Source: a virus (lineage: Duplodnaviria; Caudoviricetes). From it: a stretch of 64,000 nucleotides of DNA. Location of the stretch: positions 128,001 through 192,000 of IMG/VR virus record IMGVR_UViG_2974506496_000001; one strand, written 5' to 3'. A program made the position numbers and the translations under genes. Of this stretch, positions 1,676 to 41,379 are shown in pieces. Each line of letters begins with the position of its first letter. The first letter of the stretch is position 1. The notes under the pieces were generated by a model. It did no database searches. It was not told where the DNA came from and was given only the letters and a program-made list of their open reading frames with translations.

Positions 1676-4600
1676 ATGATTCTTTATAATGCTTTCTTCC
1701 GTCGAACTGTAGTGCGCAAGAAAGAACAGATCTTTGGCCCGCGGTTCTTGCAACTGTCACAGTTTGAATTACCCCGTGGGTCATTGCTTCATTATATCCC
1801 AACGGATCTGACTGAACAGGGGATTGAGAACAACGACCTGTTGATCAACCGTTACAGTGATGACATCTATATCGACCACGTACCACAGATCCAAACGCCG
1901 TTGGGTAACCCTCAGCGCAAACCGATCTCCCTGATGCCTGCGATCAAGCGTTATCACAACACCCACCGTCGCTTTAAACTGGTGCGTAACATCAACTCCG
2001 TGATCCGCAACAAGCTGTACATGATCGTGGAGAACTACGCCATTGCTCAGCATCAGTTGGTGTATCGTCCGGCCATGTATTCCAACTACTACCGCTGGTA
2101 CAACATGCAGTACACGGTGATGCACAACATGACCCGGCTGCAAGGTGAGTCAGATCGCAACCAGTTTGTCTATCTGCCGATTCCTGCTTCGCTGCCACAG
2201 TTGGCCCAGCTGAAGATCTACGAAGAGCGTCTGTCAGCAGGCTTGGATAAAGTCAGTAATGGCACCGGGCTTGAGAACTTCGATGACCTCAGTGCCGAAG
2301 CGCGTATTGGTTACGCCATGGAAGCCATGCTGGAATACCAGGATACGGCGGACCTGAGTCAACCAATGGCACGTGACCAGGCGATGGCTTTCCAGACCCT
2401 GGTGATGAACGCCACCAATGACACGGTGAATCTGGCACAACGTATTCCCGGTTACTACAACGGCGATGCAGGCTCGGTGCTACGGGTTGGGATGGAAGCG
2501 TTGGGTGCGTATGCCTCGAAGGTGATGAACTTCACCCCGCAGCTGTCCATGGCGGTGATGAACCGTTTACGTACGCCGGCGGATTACTGGTTCATTCACT
2601 TCTGGATGTGGCTCGGTAATCAACGTGAAGCCTCGCTGTTCAGTATGCTTGACCACGACAAGCTCGATAAGATCCACTTGGTGCTGGGTAACGTTGGTGC
2701 GTACTCCGTCATCCGTTTGGATATTCTCGATCAGTGGCGTACTGAGATCTTAAGCAAGACCTCAAACCCTGAAACCGCGGTGCAGAACTTCCGTAAACAT
2801 ATCCTGAAGTTCTTGACCCGTCTGTTTGATGTGAAGAACGGTAACGAACTGGTTATTGAACATCTTGACGATGGAGCGGATGCACATGAGGTCGGTGAAG
2901 AAGGTCAGGAGATTGCGCCGGAGCAGGGCAGTGTGGTTCCGCCAACAGCAGATACCGGACTATTCGGTACTGAGCTTCCAACCCTGGACGACCCCGCCCC
3001 TGTCGTTGCGTCTAGCACTAAGAAGGGAACAAGTAAAGGAAAAGACATTGGTTCTGCTCTGAACGACGAAGAGCCGATCGATGCCGTGGACCTCTACGAA
3101 ACCCGCACCTTAGCCGATGACATCGACGACGATGAGTTTAACCACGACACTGAGAGTCGTCGGGGTGAAGCAGCAGCGTATACTGACACGAGCACTAATC
3201 CGGAAGACGGGGTGTTGCTCTACCTGGAACGCCTGAGCGATGCCGGCGTGTTGACGGTGGCGGAATACAAACGCTTCCAGCAATTGGCCGTGGCGTATAA
3301 GAACATCCCCAATCCCGTGGGTGAGGGGACGTTAGCCGACCTGATGATTATCGACCCGTCAAAGGTCACTGATCTCGGTGGTCTCGATGCCCCGGACTCA
3401 ATCAGTATTATCGATAAGGGCTTACTGAAATCCTCGACCAAGGACTTTGATAAGAACTACATCAAGAACCTGATGGAAGCGGATATCCTCAACGCCGTGT
3501 TGTCGATTCAGAACTCCGGTGTGGCGATCATCGATTACCAGCGTGAAGAGAAGAAAGACGCCCGCAACAGCTACGTGGTTTACAGCGTGCAGGTGCAGCC
3601 GGTTGGCGGTAAAGTCACTACCCTGCGTTTTCGTGTCCCGAAGTTGAACGAAGATGGTACCTCGGTGGTCAATGGCGTGAAATCCCGTCTGCGTAAACAG
3701 CGTGTGGATATTCCGATTCGTAAAGTCTCTGCCAGCAAAGTCTCATTAACCAGTTACTACGGCAAACTGTTTATGGAGCGCTCTGAACTGTCGGTGCACA
3801 ACTACAGCGAATGGTTATCACGGCGTATCAAAGCGCTGGCGATTGCGGATACTCCAGAGATCACCCGTCTGGTACTGGGTCGCTCCTTTGATCCAAAGGT
3901 ACGTGTCCCTCACCTGTATGCGATTCTGGCCTCGCAGTTCAAAGGCTTCCAGTATCTCGATTACACCTTCAACTTTAACCGCCGGGAAATGGTGGCGGTG
4001 TTTGGCGAAGAGGTGATTGAGAAATACGCTGAGAACCGTTTTGTGGTCTGCGGGATGATCGAAGACAGTCCGCTGTTGATGGATGATAACGGCACGCTGT
4101 ATCAAGCCAACAATGACGTGTTGTCAAACCTGGGTGATTTCGAAACCTTAATTGGTCTGGATGTTTCCAAGGCACCGATCGAAACTGTGGTGTTAGGCGT
4201 ATTCCGTCAGAAGGTACCGATCGGGATTATCCTCGCGTACTACTACGGTCTGGGTGCGATGATTGAGCAGTTCAATCTGCAGGTGCGTACGGCTAACCGA
4301 GGTGAGCGTTATCAACTGACCAAAGATGAACGGGCGATCTTGTTCAACGATGAAGTGCTGATCTTTAACCGTACCGATCGTTTGGGTGCGATGTTACTGA
4401 ACGGCTTTAACTCGTATGCCAAAGAAGTCAGTCGCTTCTCGCGGTATGACTTTGACCGTAAGTCGGTTTACCTGAATGTGCTCTCTTCTGCGGGTATGGG
4501 CGTGCGGTGGTTACGTGAGTTCGATCTGATGCGTGAGATGTACATCGATCCGATCACGCGTGAAGAACTGCTGAAGATGAATGCGCCGGTGAAGTTTGAT

Positions 4601-35844: not shown

Positions 35845-36984
35845 ATGTCCATGATCGTGAAAATCACCTCGGGTGAAGATAAAGCTGACAACAATGTGAG
35901 CAAAGGGTTTGAACTGATCCCAGTAGCGGCCGGTATGCGCACTGCCTTTGAGCGCGATGAACAATCCCGCGCCTGGTTTAAGTTGTTCAATACGGATGCA
36001 GAAGGTATTGAACAGCAACTGCTCACCCGTCAGGTACTGGGTAACGTCTATGTGATGGAAGCCGGTAAGACTATCGCCAGTTTCTCCTCGGCCGATATCA
36101 GTGATATCCGGACGTCAGCAGAAGGCACCGTGTTCTTGAGCAGCCCTGCCAACGGTATCAGTAACCAACCTTATACCGAGCCTGCTATCTCTGAGCTCAA
36201 CGTACTGGGGTATAATGACCGCCTGCACGACTATACCGAGCTGCCTTTCATCACCTCAGAAGAAGTGAATGATGCCCGGGTGTTTAAGTTTCACGCCAAC
36301 TCAGAGCCAGAAGTCTGGTATGTCAATGCCGATAAAGAGTGGCAGCTGCATGAGCAGGCAACACTCAACCATCGTCAGTCTGGCGCAGCAACCAGTGAGC
36401 GCGTAGATGTCGAGGAGTTTGCCAAGGAGCTCGCCCTGGCCGTATTTGACAGTGCCGATGTTTCAGCCAGCAATGATAACATGATGTTTATCAAAACGTT
36501 GGCGGCGACGGTGATGACTGCGCACGAGAAGAACGTCACTGACTACATGGGCCTGGAATTGTTGTCAATCATTCGAGTGCCATTCTCGCGCTTAAAAACG
36601 CTGGAAGAGTATCTGCGCGTGTGCAAGTATCCGGTGCTGTGTAAGTTCGCCACTGAAGGTACACGTATTGTGAGTTACCATGTGCGGGCGTATGAGCCAA
36701 TCAATGACATCCTGCCTGGTACCGAGCTTCTGCTCCAACGTCTCAAAAGCGAACAGAAAGGCCTGGTAAAGAACCTGGTTGATAAGATCGTTAAGTACTA
36801 CCGTGCGGATTGCACCGTCGTACCGGTCGAGCCCAACCTGGTTTTTGAGTCCTTCGAGGAGCGGGCGCTGTCTGATGAATTCAGACGACTGCTTAAAATC
36901 CAGCTGGACTTCATCATGAACGATGACGGTCACTGCCATACCGCAGTGATCAGTTATCCGAGTATCATCCGTATGGGTGAGTAG
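35845..36984 (+). CDS. Hypothetical protein
   Basis: 379-aa ORF, TAAGGA RBS. Confidence 0.7.
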   Translation: MSMIVKITSGEDKADNNVSKGFELIPVAAGMRTAFERDEQSRAWFKLFNTDAEGIEQQLLTRQVLGNVYVMEAGKTIASFSSADISDIRTSAEGTVFLSSPANGISNQPYTEPAISELNVLGYNDRLHDYTELPFITSEEVNDARVFKFHANSEPEVWYVNADKEWQLHEQATLNHRQSGAATSERVDVEEFAKELALAVFDSADVSASNDNMMFIKTLAATVMTAHEKNVTDYMGLELLSIIRVPFSRLKTLEEYLRVCKYPVLCKFATEGTRIVSYHVRAYEPINDILPGTELLLQRLKSEQKGLVKNLVDKIVKYYRADCTVVPVEPNLVFESFEERALSDEFRRLLKIQLDFIMNDDGHCHTAVISYPSIIRMGE

Positions 36985-37027
36985 CAGGTATTTGTAAATA
37001 AATACTAGATACCTGCTATTACTATGT

Positions 37028-37180
37028 AAACTACGACGCTCCGAAAATCCCCCAAGATAAAGGAGTCATAACCTCTCCGTTATGCGCCTCGTAGTTTTCT
37101 TTTGAGACAGGCAAGGACGTCGACTGGGTTCAGCTGATACTGTAAAGTGTTGCTGTGTGTACCCGGTCCCTTGCCGTCTC
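37028..37180 (+). ncRNA. Candidate structured RNA(s) at the start of the RNA island
   Basis: aaactacga/tcgtagttt (37028-37097) and a long hairpin gagac-a-ggcaagg/ccttgcc-gtctc (37104-37180), each followed by T-runs. Confidence 0.4.
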
Positions 37181-37407
37181 CTTTTTCTCGATTTGTGCGA
37201 TTCTCTTCCAGGCTGTTCTTACCTGATCTCGTGTCAGGAAACAGATCGAAGACAGACATGCGAATCAACTTTGGTAGTGCCTACTATATACACACTTAGC
37301 TGTAAATTTTACTCAAAAGCAATATTAAGGATGACCCATGGACAAGCAGAGAGAAGATTCTATCGTTGAGATGATGACACTCGCTCAGCGATTAAATAAC
37401 TTAGTCG

Positions 37408-37659
37408 TTGGAATGCAAGTCCGCAAAGCCCAGTTAACGTCAGGTTCCGCCAAAGTCGTCGCTGATGCAATCAGCAAAGCGAATGTGAAACCTGAGGATC
37501 ACTGAGGTAGCCGTAAACGTAGTGGGTATGGCGGGGATCAATGATAGCCCTGCTCGGTGAGTTTGTTAATCCCCGCCGTATCGCTTCGTAGAACACAGGG
37601 TCACTCATGACGTGGGGAGTGGCATAAACACCTGGGGTAGAAGTCCCAACTGCATCCAA
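37408..37659 (+). ncRNA. Candidate ~250-nt structured RNA immediately 5' of tRNA-Asn
   Basis: Terminal helix ttggaatgca/tgcatccaa; inner helices tcaggtt/aacctga, gctgat/atcagc and 12-bp tatggcggggat/atccccgccgta. Confidence 0.5.
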
Positions 37660-37665
37660 AATTCT

Positions 37666-37741
37666 TGGTCTATAGTTCAGTCGGTAGAACAGCGGACTGT
37701 TAATCCGTAGGTCGCTGGTTCGAATCCAGCTAGACCAGCCA
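37666..37741 (+). tRNA. trnN: tRNA-Asn (GUU)
   Basis: Full cloverleaf: tggtcta/tagacca acceptor, gttc/gaac D arm, gcgga-ctGTTaa-tccgt, gctgg-ttcgaat-ccagc, encoded CCA. Confidence 0.97.
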
Positions 37742-37746
37742 AACAA

Positions 37747-37891
37747 TGACGCCCGTCACAGCCGCTTAAGCGCGCAGAAGATGACTTGTGTGCTCTGTGG
37801 CGATACTCGGACTTGCCAGCCTGTGGGGGCGGAGTAAAGTCTGGGTATTAGCCCGCTGCCATGTTACCACGTGAAAGTCGTGGGGGCGTCA
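37747..37891 (+). ncRNA. Candidate ~145-nt four-helix RNA immediately 3' of tRNA-Asn
   Basis: tgacgccc/gggcgtca closing stem; gtcacag/ctgtggc; atactcggactt/aagtctgggtat; ccacg-tgaaagt-cgtgg. Confidence 0.55.
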
Positions 37892-37973
37892 CCCTATTAG
37901 ATCGATCGCTGACAGTACGTGTTTATACTTACTTGCTTCTCTGGTTACGCTAACCTATCGTGAGGAGATAAAC

Positions 37974-38270
37974 ATGAATCTGTATATAGTCAAACGTGAT
38001 GATAGAGCTGTGGATTTCGAACAGTGTGCGGGGATGGTGGTTGCTGCGTCGTCTGAGGATGAAGCTTTGCGATTGCACCCGATGGTTCTTGACTCTAGCC
38101 ACCCAGACAATGCTGAGCGGCACCTGGCTGAATCGGCGGAGAACTTCGAGGATGGTACGTTGTACGGCTGGCCTAGCCAGGACCGTTTTCACGAACTGAC
38201 CATCACCTTGATAGGAACCACACACCTGACTATTCCGCAAGTTCTGTTACTCGACTATAAAGGCGGTTGA
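37974..38270 (+). CDS. Hypothetical phage protein
   Basis: GAGGA RBS; MNLY...VVAASSEDEA pattern common in small phage proteins. Confidence 0.7.
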   Translation: MNLYIVKRDDRAVDFEQCAGMVVAASSEDEALRLHPMVLDSSHPDNAERHLAESAENFEDGTLYGWPSQDRFHELTITLIGTTHLTIPQVLLLDYKGG

Positions 38271-38389
38271 TCTAAGTCCGGGGTAACACCCGGACACCCT
38301 ATTCTGTTTTTCAGTACATCACTGGAAGATACTATCGAGAGCAGCCACTCCGATACTCTAATTTATAAAGTTTAAAAAGGATAATAACG

Positions 38390-39043
38390 ATGTCAACCGA
38401 AATGACCATTTCTCGTGCACTGGCTACAGTGAAGTCTTTGAATGTCCGCATCAAAGATATCTCTAAAAAGCAGGTGCTGATTCTGCCAACTGCCGGCACC
38501 GGCGACATGCAAGCGGTGATCAACAACAGCATCACTGTTACCGATGCTGAAGCCGCCATCCAGAATAACTGGAATGCGCTGAACGACATGATCAAAGTGC
38601 GTAACGATATTCGTGCGAAGATCATCCTGTCGAACGCCACAACCAAAGTGACTATCGCCGGTAAAGAATACACCATTGTTGAGGCATTGGACTTCCGCAA
38701 CTCCCTGGTCGAAAAGAAAGACACGGTTGAGTGCCTGAAGCGCAACTACGACTCCACAATGAAAGTTCACCGCCAGCAGGGCGACATCTACGAAAAGCGT
38801 TTAAGCGATGTGCGCTCCGAAGCCCTGGCCTCCGGCAAGAAGTTTGATGAAGCCAGCTTGAAGACCTTCACCGATCCAATCGATGTGAAGATGAAACCAG
38901 GCCTGATCGATCCTCTGGGTATCTCAGCAGTTATTGAGAAGCTGGACAAAGAGATCGCTGACTTCGAACTTAACGCCGACTACGCGTTGTCCGAATCTAA
39001 CGCAACGACCAAGATCACTGTTGAACTTGGTAACATTGCTTAA
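38390..39043 (+). CDS. Coiled-coil protein, DIP1984/septicolysin-like, directly upstream of a large ncRNA
   Basis: MTISRAL..K.L..RI, SNATTKVTIAGKEYTIVEAL, IDPL.I...IEKL..EI..FE...DYALSESNATT; family assigned from motif recall only. Confidence 0.65.
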   Translation: MSTEMTISRALATVKSLNVRIKDISKKQVLILPTAGTGDMQAVINNSITVTDAEAAIQNNWNALNDMIKVRNDIRAKIILSNATTKVTIAGKEYTIVEALDFRNSLVEKKDTVECLKRNYDSTMKVHRQQGDIYEKRLSDVRSEALASGKKFDEASLKTFTDPIDVKMKPGLIDPLGISAVIEKLDKEIADFELNADYALSESNATTKITVELGNIA

Positions 39044-39139
39044 CCCGTATTAAAAGGCTTGTCTTCGTTTGACGAAAGATCAAACACCGCCTTCCTATTT
39101 GGCCGGATGGAAGTAAAATAACCGGCCAGCCATTATACA

Positions 39140-39205
39140 TCTGTAGGTCGCAGGTTCGATTCCTGTCGGGGTGAAACCCGTAGCTCAGTCGGTTAGAGCA
39201 GCAGA
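39140..39205 (+). ncRNA. Circularly permuted tRNA-like domain (T arm, looped acceptor, D arm)
   Basis: tctgt-aggtc-gcagg ttcgatt cctgt-cggg gtgaaa cccg-ta-gctc agtcggtta gagc-a-gcaga. Confidence 0.85.
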
Positions 39206-39278
39206 ACAACTGCTTATGCTAAAAGCAATGATCTTTGGGATCATCAATGGTGTACTGTGAGCACCTTGAAATCACAGG

Positions 39279-39402
39279 TCTAAAGCTTAAAGCTATAACG
39301 TATAATGACTAAAGCTCTAAAGGTTTAAACTTATAACGTTAAAAAGATCTACACTCCCTGATGACTGTGTTCGTCGGGCTATAACGCTAAAACCTTTTAA
39401 AC
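39279..39402 (+). repeat. Degenerate 7-8-nt tandem repeat (YTAAAGC / TATAACG-like)
   Basis: tctaaagc ttaaagc tataacg tataatg actaaagc tctaaagg tttaaac ttataacg ttaaaaag, a hairpin, then ctataacg ctaaaacc ttttaaac. Confidence 0.7.
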
Positions 39403-39517
39403 AAATCCTGGGTATTCCTCCGCTGTGAGGATGGGTAATGTGGAGTGTGGTCTGCCACGTATCGCCGCCAGGCTGTCTTGCGGAGACAAGTCTTTCCCTT
39501 TTGCAATAGGTGACCTA

Positions 39518-39688
39518 ATGACAGGCACTGCCTTAATGATCATTGAGCAACCACAACTGGAATTCAATATCCCGTTGAGGTCGCCTTATCCTACCCTTCA
39601 TGACGTAAGGTTTTCTATGTTCCCTGTTATGGCTGAGCCTGAGAACGAAGGGTTTGAACAAGATTCAGAAACTGACGCATTACATTGA
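39518..39688 (+). CDS. Possible small acidic protein (56 aa)
   Basis: AGGTGA RBS before the ATG at 39518; short, so uncertain. Confidence 0.35.
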   Translation: MTGTALMIIEQPQLEFNIPLRSPYPTLHDVRFSMFPVMAEPENEGFEQDSETDALH

Positions 39689-40106
39689 GGAGATTCAATC
39701 GCGCAGGTTCTTAACCGACTAAAGCCAGGGTGACTTGTGTTATCTTGGTAACAGGTGAACGCGTCGTTACAGCGCATACGACTGAATGGGCCGATCCCCC
39801 CTTCGGAGTAATATTAGCCCAGATCCATTGCACACCAATAAGTCAATGGCTAGCCAGACACACAAAAAACTATTATGCTTCGACAGATGGTAGGTGCCTG
39901 ATTACTACAATTCGATTCGATACCTCAACTAAAAGGCGGACACAAGGGCCGTTATGAGTGAAGCACCAGGAAACTATACCTTGGTAAGGCCCCAGGCTTT
40001 TTATCCTTACCAAGGTTCTCTTTCTTTTACTACCTGATAATGGGTGGATGCCTTAGTCACCTTTCTTTCACAGAGGCAACAACCTAAGGCGTCTGCCCGC
40101 CCTATA

Positions 40107-40216
40107 ACCCGAGTCGTCTAGCGACAAGACACCGTCAGACCCATTTGGTAACAGCCTAACTTACCTGTTACCCAACCTATGACGGAAACAGGTGGTTCAA
40201 CTCCACCTCTTGGGTC
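40107..40216 (+). ncRNA. tRNA-like element with a 42-nt insert replacing the anticodon loop
   Basis: acccgag/cttgggt acceptor, gtct/agac D arm, ccgtca/tgacgg stem, aggtgg-ttcaact-ccacct T arm; no CCA. Confidence 0.65.
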
Positions 40217-40293
40217 TTAGGTATTGGCTTAGGCAAACTCCGTCGCGGCTTTACCCTCAATAGGCTGCGTTGCGTAAGTCAGTACCGTGCTGT

Positions 40294-40449
40294 GCGTCGT
40301 ACTCCCTGATGAGGCGCCCGACGTTAAAAGGCACGAAACGGGGACAGAGGATACTCCATCGGTGATTGCAATCAACCACGCTGGGGTTTATACAGGCACT
40401 TGAGAGACACGCTGGTTTCTCGTTGCCTGTCCCTTTGTCCCGTCGGAGT
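40294..40449 (+). ncRNA. Type I hammerhead ribozyme; predicted cleavage 3' of C40444
   Basis: Stem I actcc/ggagt, core CUGAUGA (40306-40312), stem II, GAAA (40335-40338), stem III acggggacagagg/cctttgtcccgt, GUC triplet; loop II cgacgt pairs with 5' gcgtcg. Confidence 0.85.
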
Positions 40450-40853
40450 CCCTTGCGTTCCTGGAGGGATGACACCGCGTTAAGACTGATCCCCTTAACG
40501 AAGTTGCAATAGCCGGGGGTGTTTCTTGCAAAGGTTACTCACAGCAGACTGCCTCCGCCAATTGCGGATGGCTTAGGCCCTCAGTCCGTCAGGAAGTTGT
40601 CGTTGAATAAATGACAGCTGGACTAGGGTTGCATTATAACCCGGCAAATGTGCAGCCTGTTTTTTCTTCATGTGTACCTGAACCGGTTCAGGAGCCTACA
40701 GATGAGGGAACGACGGGAAGCATATTGCTACCGATCATTTGCTGTGTGACCGGGCCAAGGATGGCATATACCGGAACCAGTAGTCGTATTCAGCGCAGGT
40801 GCGCTTTCTCTTCCTTATCTTGTGGTTAAACCGCGCCTGTCTGGATCATACGT

Positions 40854-40881
40854 GCCGGGGTCACACCTGGCGCTTATGCCG
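40854..40881 (+). terminator. Hairpin plus TTATGCCG closing the RNA island
   Basis: gccggg-gtcaca-cctggc then gcttatgccg. Confidence 0.55.
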
Positions 40882-40956
40882 TCTGAGTTGTATCCTTTTT
40901 TACTCCTACATTACGAAGCTGATATACCCATCAATTCAATTTAAAGGAGTTTAGTT

Positions 40957-41379
40957 ATGAAGAACGTTACTATTGCTATTGGTCGTAATCCGCTGTCCAA
41001 CCAGAAATGGATTCTGGATCAGATCGTGAGTCTGGTGAAGTCCGGCAAGTCCGACATCTTCATCGTCAATACTGACTCACGGGTTTCCACTGCGGTACTC
41101 AACGCCTTGAAAGAGTATACGAAGGATGATGCGGAATACACTCGCTTGGTTGCTGAGAACGGTGTCATGTTCCACACAACCGAGACCGAAGACCTGCAAA
41201 CGCTGGATGATGCTAAGATGAACAGCCGCTCGGCGATTCTGGCCAACATGCTGTTCAGCCTGCCATTGGTCAAACAGTGTCGTGATCTGGCGCGTCACCA
41301 CGTCCCGGTCTTTGTGAGTGCCACACCTGCCATGTCTGGTAAGGTGCCGGCTGCCGCCCATACCAAGTTCCTCGATTAA
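40957..41379 (+). CDS. Hypothetical protein
   Basis: AAGGAG RBS; TACATTAC promoter-like site at 40907-40914. Confidence 0.7.
   Translation: MKNVTIAIGRNPLSNQKWILDQIVSLVKSGKSDIFIVNTDSRVSTAVLNALKEYTKDDAEYTRLVAENGVMFHTTETEDLQTLDDAKMNSRSAILANMLFSLPLVKQCRDLARHHVPVFVSATPAMSGKVPAAAHTKFLD

Follow-up and report, generated by a model that had tools for sequence, protein, structure and literature searches.

A structured RNA behind a phage protein gene

The stretch of DNA analysed here, hereafter the window, comprises 64,000 nucleotides of a virus of the class Caudoviricetes (positions 128,001 to 192,000 of IMG/VR record IMGVR_UViG_2974506496_000001) and shares 99% identity with Agricanvirus jumbo phages of Erwinia amylovora (Rebecca, MadMel, Deimos-Minion). 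It carries a gene for a 217-aa protein (38390-39043; phrog_1491), here called the partner protein, and directly behind it a structured noncoding RNA (ncRNA) of ~445 nt (39053-39497), both on the plus strand. The RNA locus is situated at ~167 kb of the 271,182-bp phage genome, in a gene-poor stretch that also holds tRNA-Asn(GUU) at 37666-37741, the only tRNA of this phage. For related phages, one tRNA-Asn has been reported in RAY-type genomes and none in Deimos-Minion (PMC6690015). A preliminary description of the locus, made from the nucleotide sequence alone, had proposed that the protein and the RNA form a ribonucleoprotein (RNP), and this proposal was followed up by computational analysis.

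The RNA begins 10 nt beyond the stop codon of the partner gene (TAA, 39041-39043), and the next start codon lies 22 nt beyond its 3' end. The latter belongs to a 56-aa gene (phrog_10783; 39518-39688, plus strand), which is outside the RNA and fixes its 3' limit. It had been stated that the RNA contains no credible open reading frame (ORF), and this was borne out: the only ORF annotated inside it, gp208 of Deimos-Minion (87 aa from GTG 39425; 39425-39688), has a PHROG match that covers residues 32-87 only, which is the part beyond the RNA. The true 56-aa gene therefore starts at ATG 39518, and the annotated ORFs that overlap the RNA in its 3' part (Deimos-Minion gp208; AH06_218, at 4094-4279 of locus L002) are artefacts. 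Besides misplacing ORFs over the RNA, public annotations name the partner protein ‘tail fiber’, a label that phrog_1491 carries without evidence.

The RNA is closed end to end, with all of its elements on the plus strand. The end pairing given in the preliminary description is present exactly as it had been placed, with the 5' arm of the terminal stem P1 (39053-39068) forming 16 bp, three of them G-U, with the 3' arm (39480-39495). Its extension, formerly given as GAC/GUC, is present as well and is read here as a helix P1b, in which GACG (39071-39074) pairs with UGUC (39474-39477) beyond a UU/UU internal loop. On the 5' side, GACG continues into an AAAG junction to give GACGAAAG (39071-39078), which is the family-wide junction of a CG helix end with AAA and also fits the motif GNCGAAN0-1G. 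An H-type pseudoknot follows (39091-39128), in which S1 is formed by CUUCC (39091-95) and GGAAG (39109-13), S2 by UGGCCGG (39100-06) and CCGGCCA (39122-28), and the A-rich loop 3 by UAAAAUAA (39114-21). Further downstream are a permuted tRNA-like module (39140-39206) and a set of hairpins that vary in sequence and number between subclades (39207-39279; e.g. GAUC...GAUC at 39230-42 and 39249-77).

The 3' half of the RNA starts with an A-rich repeat array (39280-39346) of ~9 units, (Y)UAAAG or UAUAAC, at intervals of 6-8 nt. The array is predicted to be single-stranded, and its columns are conserved in 12 relatives. It is followed by a hairpin (39356-39378) that has a counterpart of different sequence in every jumbo-clade member, and by a 3' domain (39399-39479). 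This domain has an AAAUCC lead-in and a closing helix formed by CCUGG (39407-11) and CCAGG (39468-72); inside are an extra, clade-specific hairpin (39417-30) and an inner hairpin (39439-59), and at its 3' end GGCUG (39471-75) overlaps the 3' strand of P1b. Beyond P1 lies a pyrimidine-rich tail, CCCUUUUGC (39496-39504), with the sequence CCCYYUUU conserved among jumbo-clade members; this could represent either the tail of a terminator or a single-stranded 3' end. A T-run had been noted at this position, but it amounts to only CCCUUUU (39496-39502) and is weak as a terminator. Scanning of the plus strand around the RNA revealed no sigma-70 promoter or intrinsic terminator, which is uninformative for a phage with its own RNA polymerases. 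The minimum free energy fold retained the end-to-end stem, with a z-score of -3.38, and none of 100 dinucleotide shuffles was equally stable.

Comparison with relatives confirmed that positions 39053-39497 of the window encode a conserved structured ncRNA. Relative to Erwinia phage AH06, the RNA block is 89.1% identical, whereas identity is 74.5% in the DNA of the upstream protein gene and 61% and 33% in the short flanking stretches; the similarity ends just beyond the U-rich tail. For analysis of covariation, 12 jumbo-clade RNAs from phage records, IMG/VR and assembled runs, with partner proteins 46-100% identical to that of the window, were aligned using MAFFT. RNAalifold gave 54 pairs for this alignment, 20 of which had compensatory double changes. 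The structure named above, including the pseudoknot (60 proposed pairs, 12 relatives), was 93.5% paired, as opposed to 36-51% in controls in which the pairing partners were slid by 1-3 columns, and it contained 20 pairs with double changes as opposed to 2-6; none of 500 shuffles reached these values.

The support extended to the individual helices. Eight pairs of the terminal stem were compensatory among the 12 relatives, pseudoknot S1 was 100% paired with one compensatory pair, and S2 covaried across subclades (GGCCGG, GGCCAG, GGUCAG, GAGCCGG). In the tRNA-like module, helices 4-7 were 98-100% paired; the closing stem, the T arm and the acceptor-like hairpin accounted for nine compensatory pairs, the D arm was invariant, and the consensus of the T loop and the D loop was kept. 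Between the jumbo subclades, MAFFT placed S2 and the 3' closing helix one column out of register, which lowered the counts, and both helices were checked using anchored scripts. The 3' closing helix was found in 18 sequence versions in ~85 RNAs at a constant span of 46-52 nt, and it spans 64 nt in the window because of the extra hairpin. The A-rich units are likewise a family-wide property: 57% of successive spacings were 6-8 nt, as opposed to 15% after shuffling, and the median density was 10 units per 110 nt. The pseudoknot, which had been offered as a possibility, the periodic A-rich tract, the cctgg/ccagg-closed 3' domain and the covarying terminal stem of the preliminary description have thus all stood up to comparison. 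For its GNCGAAA...GGCUG motif the outcome was divided, as a CGAAA...GGCUG junction, at which the terminal stem ends with C-G/G-U, occurs family-wide, but a sister jumbo subclade has GCGGG in place of GACGAAAG.

Two further pairings were considered. A long-range interaction of the 5' junction strand with the 3' domain (AAACC(UU)/(AA)GGUUU in gut phages; GUUUGA/UCAAAC in some jumbo phages) was suggestive but not significant, a median of 27% of shuffles being as good, and it is absent from the window RNA. Pairing of a loop with the 5' strand was recognized by eye in T5, Ro1 and L011 (AUCUUAC/GUAAGAU, AUCUUG/CAAGAU), and both of the sides concerned are invariant in the window clade.

Contigs at least 99% identical to the window were contained in one cDNA run from wastewater and in three metatranscriptome runs from leaf litter, each of the latter from a different study. 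These contigs span 39078-39228, 39239-39388, 39258-39483, 39252-39484 and 39217-39385, all within the RNA. Using 38390-39500 as the query, contigs were obtained only in 39078-39484 and none in the protein gene, which makes up 59% of the query. There was no contig over 38390-39043 or 39500-40500, although such absence by itself is not evidence. The distribution gives a weak hint that the RNA outlasts the mRNA.

Distribution of the gene-RNA pair

The partner protein was detected by tblastn in 714 phage records, comprising T5 and many of its relatives, Mydovirus, Flaumdravirus, Vibrio Thalassavirus, Bacillus phages and jumbo phages, and it was present in 278 IMG/VR stretches (single search pattern). 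T5 (gene T5.085), Raoultella phage Ro1, Pseudomonas phage KIL3 and Vibrio phage Athena all have an unannotated gap of 360-440 nt behind the gene. These gaps share a plan: a 5' arm leads to a CG helix end plus AAA and to an H-type pseudoknot, the third loop of which is A-rich; after a variable middle come the (Y)UAAAG units in a row, then a small 3' domain, closed by CCNNG/CNNGG and continuing into GGCUG, and finally the 3' arm. The pseudoknot topology recurs in T5, Ro1, L011 and gut phages. What lies downstream of the RNA varies: here it is a small ORF, whereas Ro1 has tRNA-Thr, Athena an HNH gene and T5 a promoter at this position.

About 100 IMG/VR loci were then gathered via the partner protein. 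In most of the ~100 viral loci the terminal stem starts 3-25 nt past the stop codon and closes 280-470 nt later, and the stem sequences are wholly different between clades. A covariance model built from the 3' domain of the RNA, R1, matched 73 of 82 loci, each time downstream of the gene and on the same strand (E <= 1.6e-4); L075 had in addition a marginal second match upstream (E 0.005). The nine misses were six second-subclade jumbo RNAs, which were aligned by hand, KIL3, L019 and the truncated L125, and nearly all of them were rescued by inspection. The phage's own genome contains exactly one R1 match, which is the 3' domain in the window (E 6.5e-9). Bacterial assemblies (Firmicutes isolates and metagenome-assembled genomes) carried the gene-RNA pair in 14 of 15 loci. 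The RNA persisted where an ORF or a repeat element separates it from the gene (L012-15, L075-81, L088, L094/95). An RNA with a terminal stem, which the preliminary description had expected downstream of homologs of the protein, thus indeed co-occurs with them far beyond this phage. Together, these comparisons show that a covarying fold has been maintained in T5-like, Mydovirus, Thalassavirus and jumbo phages and as far as Firmicutes (pro)phage-like loci, and that the gene-then-RNA order is conserved over the same range.

The sequences found between gene and RNA were of different kinds. In L013 there is a perfect 71-nt inverted repeat resembling a miniature inverted-repeat transposable element (MITE) at 2104-2509, with the R1 match still at 2872-2943. 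L014 and L015 have GC-rich repeat blocks at ~2110-2700 and R1 matches at 2800-2875 and 2934-3010, and an extra ORF of ~100 aa is located at this position in the gut-phage loci L075-L081, L088, L090, L094 and L095.

At gathering score the window RNA matched no Rfam family, and YrlA was the sole meaningful match at relaxed thresholds. The preliminary view that the RNA was undescribed therefore stands for its full length; a 5' segment of it, however, is catalogued in gut phages, where the first ~86 nt of the RNA match RAGATH-27 (RF03100; 96.9 bits in L091 and 77.1 bits in L084, gathering score 76.1). Seven more gut-phage loci had sub-threshold matches, and in the window the model had no match over 36900-41000 at E up to 10. 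In gut phages, the matching stretch runs from the inner 5' arm through the CGAAAAC junction and includes the pseudoknot. The loci that bear it are like the window in that the RNA follows a homologous protein gene and has the terminal stem, the CGAAA junction, the pseudoknot topology, the repeat array and the R1 3' domain. RAGATH-27, an orphan motif listed as a candidate small RNA, is accordingly a 5' fragment of one clade of the RNA family. Its model, in which a single hairpin is annotated, accounts for less than a quarter of the RNA and extends to neither the partner protein nor the terminal stem, repeat array and 3' domain. RAGATH-19 had no match in any of the loci scanned. Literature on T5.085, phrog_1491, DUF6847, RAGATH-27 and T5 ncRNAs yielded nothing relevant. 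Relative to the literature and Rfam, the full-length RNA, the partner protein and the tRNA-Asn-derived mimic described below appear to be undescribed, with only the 5' fragment of one clade catalogued. A second orphan Rfam motif, RAGATH-36 (RF03104; 103 bits in L087), was observed in loci from gut phages (L087 440-567; L074 1-65), where it precedes the protein gene by ~1 kb.

The tRNA-like module and the comparison with Y RNAs

The module at 39140-39206 consists of a closing stem, UCUG(U) 39140-44/CAGA 39202-05, a T arm (39150-66), an acceptor-like hairpin (39167-80) and a D arm (39183-99). Its elements are ordered as anticodon-stem 3' strand, variable loop, T arm, closed acceptor-like hairpin, D arm and anticodon-stem 5' strand; the module is thus a tRNA circularly permuted at the anticodon loop, with the same topology as the tRNA-like domain of YrlA. 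It displays the tRNA elbow (T loop plus D loop) but has neither an anticodon loop nor a free acceptor end. Neither ARAGORN nor the Rfam tRNA and tmRNA models found anything in 39053-39497, the tRNA-Asn at 37666-37741 being their sole find. When compared with this tRNA-Asn of the phage, the two module halves match at 19 of 21 and 21 of 25 bases, including both anticodon-stem strands, and the closing stem equals the tRNA-Asn anticodon stem with one compensated change. The module is therefore most simply derived from the phage tRNA-Asn. As judged from these similarities, it may have arisen, for example, from a tandem tRNA-Asn pair stripped of its outer halves, and it was probably not acquired from a bacterial Y RNA. 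Such an origin would mean that a phage tRNA can independently give rise to a tRNA mimic like that of Y RNAs, which bears on the origin of YrlA-type RNAs.

The preliminary description had treated a tRNA-mimic domain as part of the RNA. The module is present and covaries in the jumbo clade, where it is under selection, but it does not belong to the core of the family. Outside the jumbo clade it occurs in a few others only, and T5, Ro1, L011 and most gut-phage RNAs have plain hairpins at its position. Two 237-kb phages (L021, at 2399-2470, and L022) have a complete tRNA-Asn embedded in the variable region of the RNA, and L020 and L106 contain permuted pieces resembling class II tRNAs. In L106 (~1990-2110), a permuted class II-like T/acceptor/D module is accompanied by a separate hairpin formed like an Asn anticodon stem-loop. 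tRNA-like sequences were also seen just 3' of the RNA in relatives L103, L107 and SA002 (L004 3956-4026, tRNA match of 34 bits).

A parallel with bacterial Y RNAs had been drawn as well. At relaxed thresholds, the Rfam model of YrlA (RF02553) matched the module with 44.5 bits (E 7.7e-8; model positions 23-87 of 114), which is below the gathering score of 69, and it also matched the RNAs of AH06, SNUABM_48 and SA002. YrlA-type Y RNAs (PMC4201824) are alike in having paired ends, a GNCGAA-like motif on the 5' strand, a permuted tRNA-like module closed by the equivalent of the anticodon stem, and a same-strand protein gene beside them. They differ in their length of ~100-130 nt, compared with ~445 nt here, and do not have the pseudoknot, the repeat array or the 3' domain of the window RNA; in turn, the partner protein here has an unrelated helical fold, and the module is optional and derived from tRNA-Asn. 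YrlA is encoded no more than ~4 kb away from a Ro60/Rsr (TROVE) gene that has the same orientation (Chen et al. 2014, PMC4201824). The earlier statement that no Ro60/TROVE gene is visible in the window can be extended to the whole 271-kb genome, in which TROVE/Ro60 (PF05731) had no match; it had none in Deimos-Minion, AH06, SNUABM_48 and SA002 either, and the control genomes were matched. Moreover, GACGAAAG represents the family junction and is replaced by GCGGG in the sister subclade, and is therefore hardly evidence for a Ro60 site. Of the Y RNA parallel, the topology of the module thus remains, whereas the score, the missing Ro60 gene and the origin in the phage tRNA-Asn do not fit it.

A full-length RtcB RNA ligase is encoded by the phage 122 kb from the RNA (G000:C1:44575-45723, outside the window; E 5.7e-127). 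RtcB was present in four of five module-bearing genomes (this phage, AH06, pEa_SNUABM_48 and the 287-kb genome of L010, but not SA002) and in none of six module-less genomes (T5, Ro1, KIL3, Athena, L011, L021). In Salmonella, RtcB is reported to share an operon with rsr and yrlA (PMC7790460). The correlation between RtcB and the module is only a lead, as the module-bearing genomes all belong to one clade and RtcB is located far from the RNA.

The partner protein and a possible ribonucleoprotein

The AlphaFold2 model of the partner protein (mean confidence, pLDDT, 88) is a helical bundle in which an N-terminal strand, a central hairpin and a C-terminal strand form a small beta-sheet at one tip. 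The two most conserved segments, both with the motif SNAxT, are located at this tip. The protein had been called DIP1984-like, and the structural comparisons are consistent with this, if weakly so. The top match in three comparisons was PDB 3kdq, an uncharacterised Corynebacterium diphtheriae protein that we take to be DIP1984. Foldseek gave E 0.01, probability 1.0 and template modelling (TM) scores of 0.38/0.52; VIA-align 2 gave Z 9.2 with a root mean square deviation of 9.3 over 151 residues, where helical bundles reach Z 7-9 by chance; and a sequence profile gave E 0.012, with an alignment spanning the conserved SNAxT...TxAEAI segment. Five of 38 relatives touched DUF6847 (PF20935), all of them sub-threshold (best E 8.6e-4), and the window protein had no PF20935 match, so that the Pfam gathering score of 27 bits was not reached. 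A distant relationship of the partner protein to DIP1984/DUF6847 is thus weakly supported. The window protein is ~60 residues longer than 3kdq, and DUF6847 (‘septicolysin’) is a bacterial family without known function, so the relationship explains nothing yet.

Scans of the partner protein and its neighbours against Pfam, NCBIfam and PADLOC gave nothing usable, and a search of the ESM Atlas with the partner protein returned unnamed viral clusters only. A Csl4 match on the helical region (20 bits against a cut-off of 90) was treated as chance. The upstream 218-aa gene in L107 and L110 was considered as a paralogue of the partner protein and rejected.

The window RNA belongs to a large family of phage RNAs that is accompanied throughout by the gene for the upstream ~210-aa helical protein, and we hypothesize that the RNA probably assembles with the co-expressed protein into an RNP. 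The RNA would be made within the transcript of the partner protein, since it begins 10 nt past the stop codon and the next gene begins 22 nt past the RNA. It would then probably be freed by cleavage in or beside the long terminal duplex (16+4 bp between two genes), for which RNase III is an obvious candidate. The repeat array could provide a multivalent, possibly cooperative binding platform, while the pseudoknot and the 3' domain may act as a folded frame. In the operator of T4 gene 32, a 5' pseudoknot is followed by UUAAA/UAAA repeats that are bound cooperatively by gene 32 protein; this operator and repeat-binding ring proteins provide functional analogies for the loading of the array. The operator, summarised in PMC10690425, resembles the window RNA in its succession of a pseudoknot and short A/U-rich repeats and could thus serve as a model for cooperative protein loading, but it is a much smaller leader upstream of the gene that it regulates, whereas the window RNA is self-closed and lies downstream of its partner gene.

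As the pair is found in tRNA gene clusters and parts of tRNAs have been grafted onto it repeatedly, the upkeep of tRNAs or translation during infection would be its most likely, though speculative, field of action. The pair might bind or divert a factor that recognises the shape of tRNA, with the tRNA-shaped graft serving as a handle or bait. The fullest form of the hypothesis can be put forward only tentatively and with some doubt: a new class of phage RNPs in T5 and hundreds of large virulent phages, in which several copies of the protein sit on the UAAAG array, the complex acts on the tRNA/translation apparatus, and the tRNA grafts bait tRNA-recognising enzymes or defence nucleases.

Several observations weigh against an RNP. 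The protein family is near-neutral to acidic (median isoelectric point 5.9, above 8 in 3 of 109 members), which is unusual for a protein that coats RNA, and domain scans detected no recognisable RNA-binding domain in the partner protein. The fold matches other than 3kdq are generic helical bundles. The synteny could reflect shared transcription or processing only, and the loci were gathered through the protein, so that RNAs lacking the partner gene would be missed. The metatranscriptome contigs have ~2x depth, come from libraries that may contain DNA and cannot define the ends of the RNA. Finally, the tRNA-related role is speculation from genomic context.

Some of these points would fit an RNA-only machine in the manner of ROOL and GOLLD, in which the RNA alone would serve as a scaffold, form a multimeric assembly or sponge a host factor, with the protein tied to it by co-transcription or indirectly. 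Conservation is higher in the RNA than in the protein gene, a basic character and a recognisable RNA-binding domain are missing from the protein, and the repeat array could sponge a host RNA-binding protein or nuclease. GOLLD and ROOL are likewise large, multi-pseudoknotted RNAs among phage tRNA genes, at times with embedded tRNAs such as the whole tRNA-Asn in L021 and L022, and their function is unknown; they reportedly form RNA-only multimers and have no fixed partner gene (bioRxiv 10.1101/2024.12.08.627333). The window RNA is smaller and invariably lies behind one protein gene, and the Rfam models of GOLLD and ROOL did not match it at gathering score or at E up to 10. Moreover, the gene order is kept across otherwise dissimilar phages (T5, Mydovirus, jumbo and Firmicutes loci), even with inserts between gene and RNA, and we regard an RNA-only machine as rather unlikely. 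The close spacing of the RNA to both neighbouring genes could also indicate a cis-acting element of the operon, which would stabilise, terminate or process the transcript as a 3' untranslated or intercistronic region, or serve as an operator for the translation of the protein's own or the next gene. The pyrimidine/U tail after the terminal stem in the jumbo clade and, by analogy, the gene 32 leader with its pseudoknot and A/U-rich repeats would agree with this. It appears improbable nonetheless, as a multi-domain pseudoknotted fold of 350-450 nt far exceeds the needs of a stabiliser or terminator, the downstream neighbour differs among phages, the RNA is retained where inserts part it from the protein gene, and the metatranscriptome contigs fall on the RNA and not on the coding region.

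That the RNA is a true Ro60-dependent Y RNA is very improbable. The YrlA match, the presence of GACGAAAG on the 5' strand of the terminal stem and the distribution of the phage RtcB would suggest it, but the match is confined to the tRNA-like part and below threshold, the motif is the junction of the family at large, no TROVE gene exists in the phage or its four relatives, and the module derives from the phage tRNA-Asn. The RtcB correlation is confounded by shared ancestry, with SA002 as an exception and the gene 122 kb away. In addition, the family thrives in T5, whose host species E. coli has no TROVE match (E. coli control genome). Least credible of all is a reading of the locus as debris, i.e. 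decayed tRNA genes and repeats in a recombination-prone tRNA region with fortuitous stems. The tRNA pieces in the variable region are indeed of different origin (permuted Asn-like here, class II-like in L020 and L106, whole tRNA-Asn in L021/22), and MITE-like inserts occur nearby (L013). However, the strong conservation, the compensatory changes in every core helix and in the tRNA-like module, and the detection of the element by the covariance model in distant phage families refute this reading for the core RNA.

Few large structured RNAs have known functions, and the gene-RNA pair is widespread. If the RNA and the partner protein do form an RNP, it would be a new type in phages and would provide the first functional lead for the bacterial DIP1984/DUF6847 family. 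The presence of the pair in the model phage T5, which infects E. coli K-12, makes its function directly testable by standard genetics and biochemistry.

Two observations were made on the sequences around the pair. Between 39690 and 40957 (~1.27 kb), the window has only short ORFs, with no gene annotated there in Deimos-Minion, and this stretch may hold more RNA genes or decayed tRNAs. Upstream of the partner gene, a leaf-litter metatranscriptome contig (37975-38155; 181 nt, no mismatches) covers the start of a 98-aa ORF (37974-38270; phrog_5444), and apart from the RNA contigs it was the sole phage-specific piece recovered from this 3-kb stretch.

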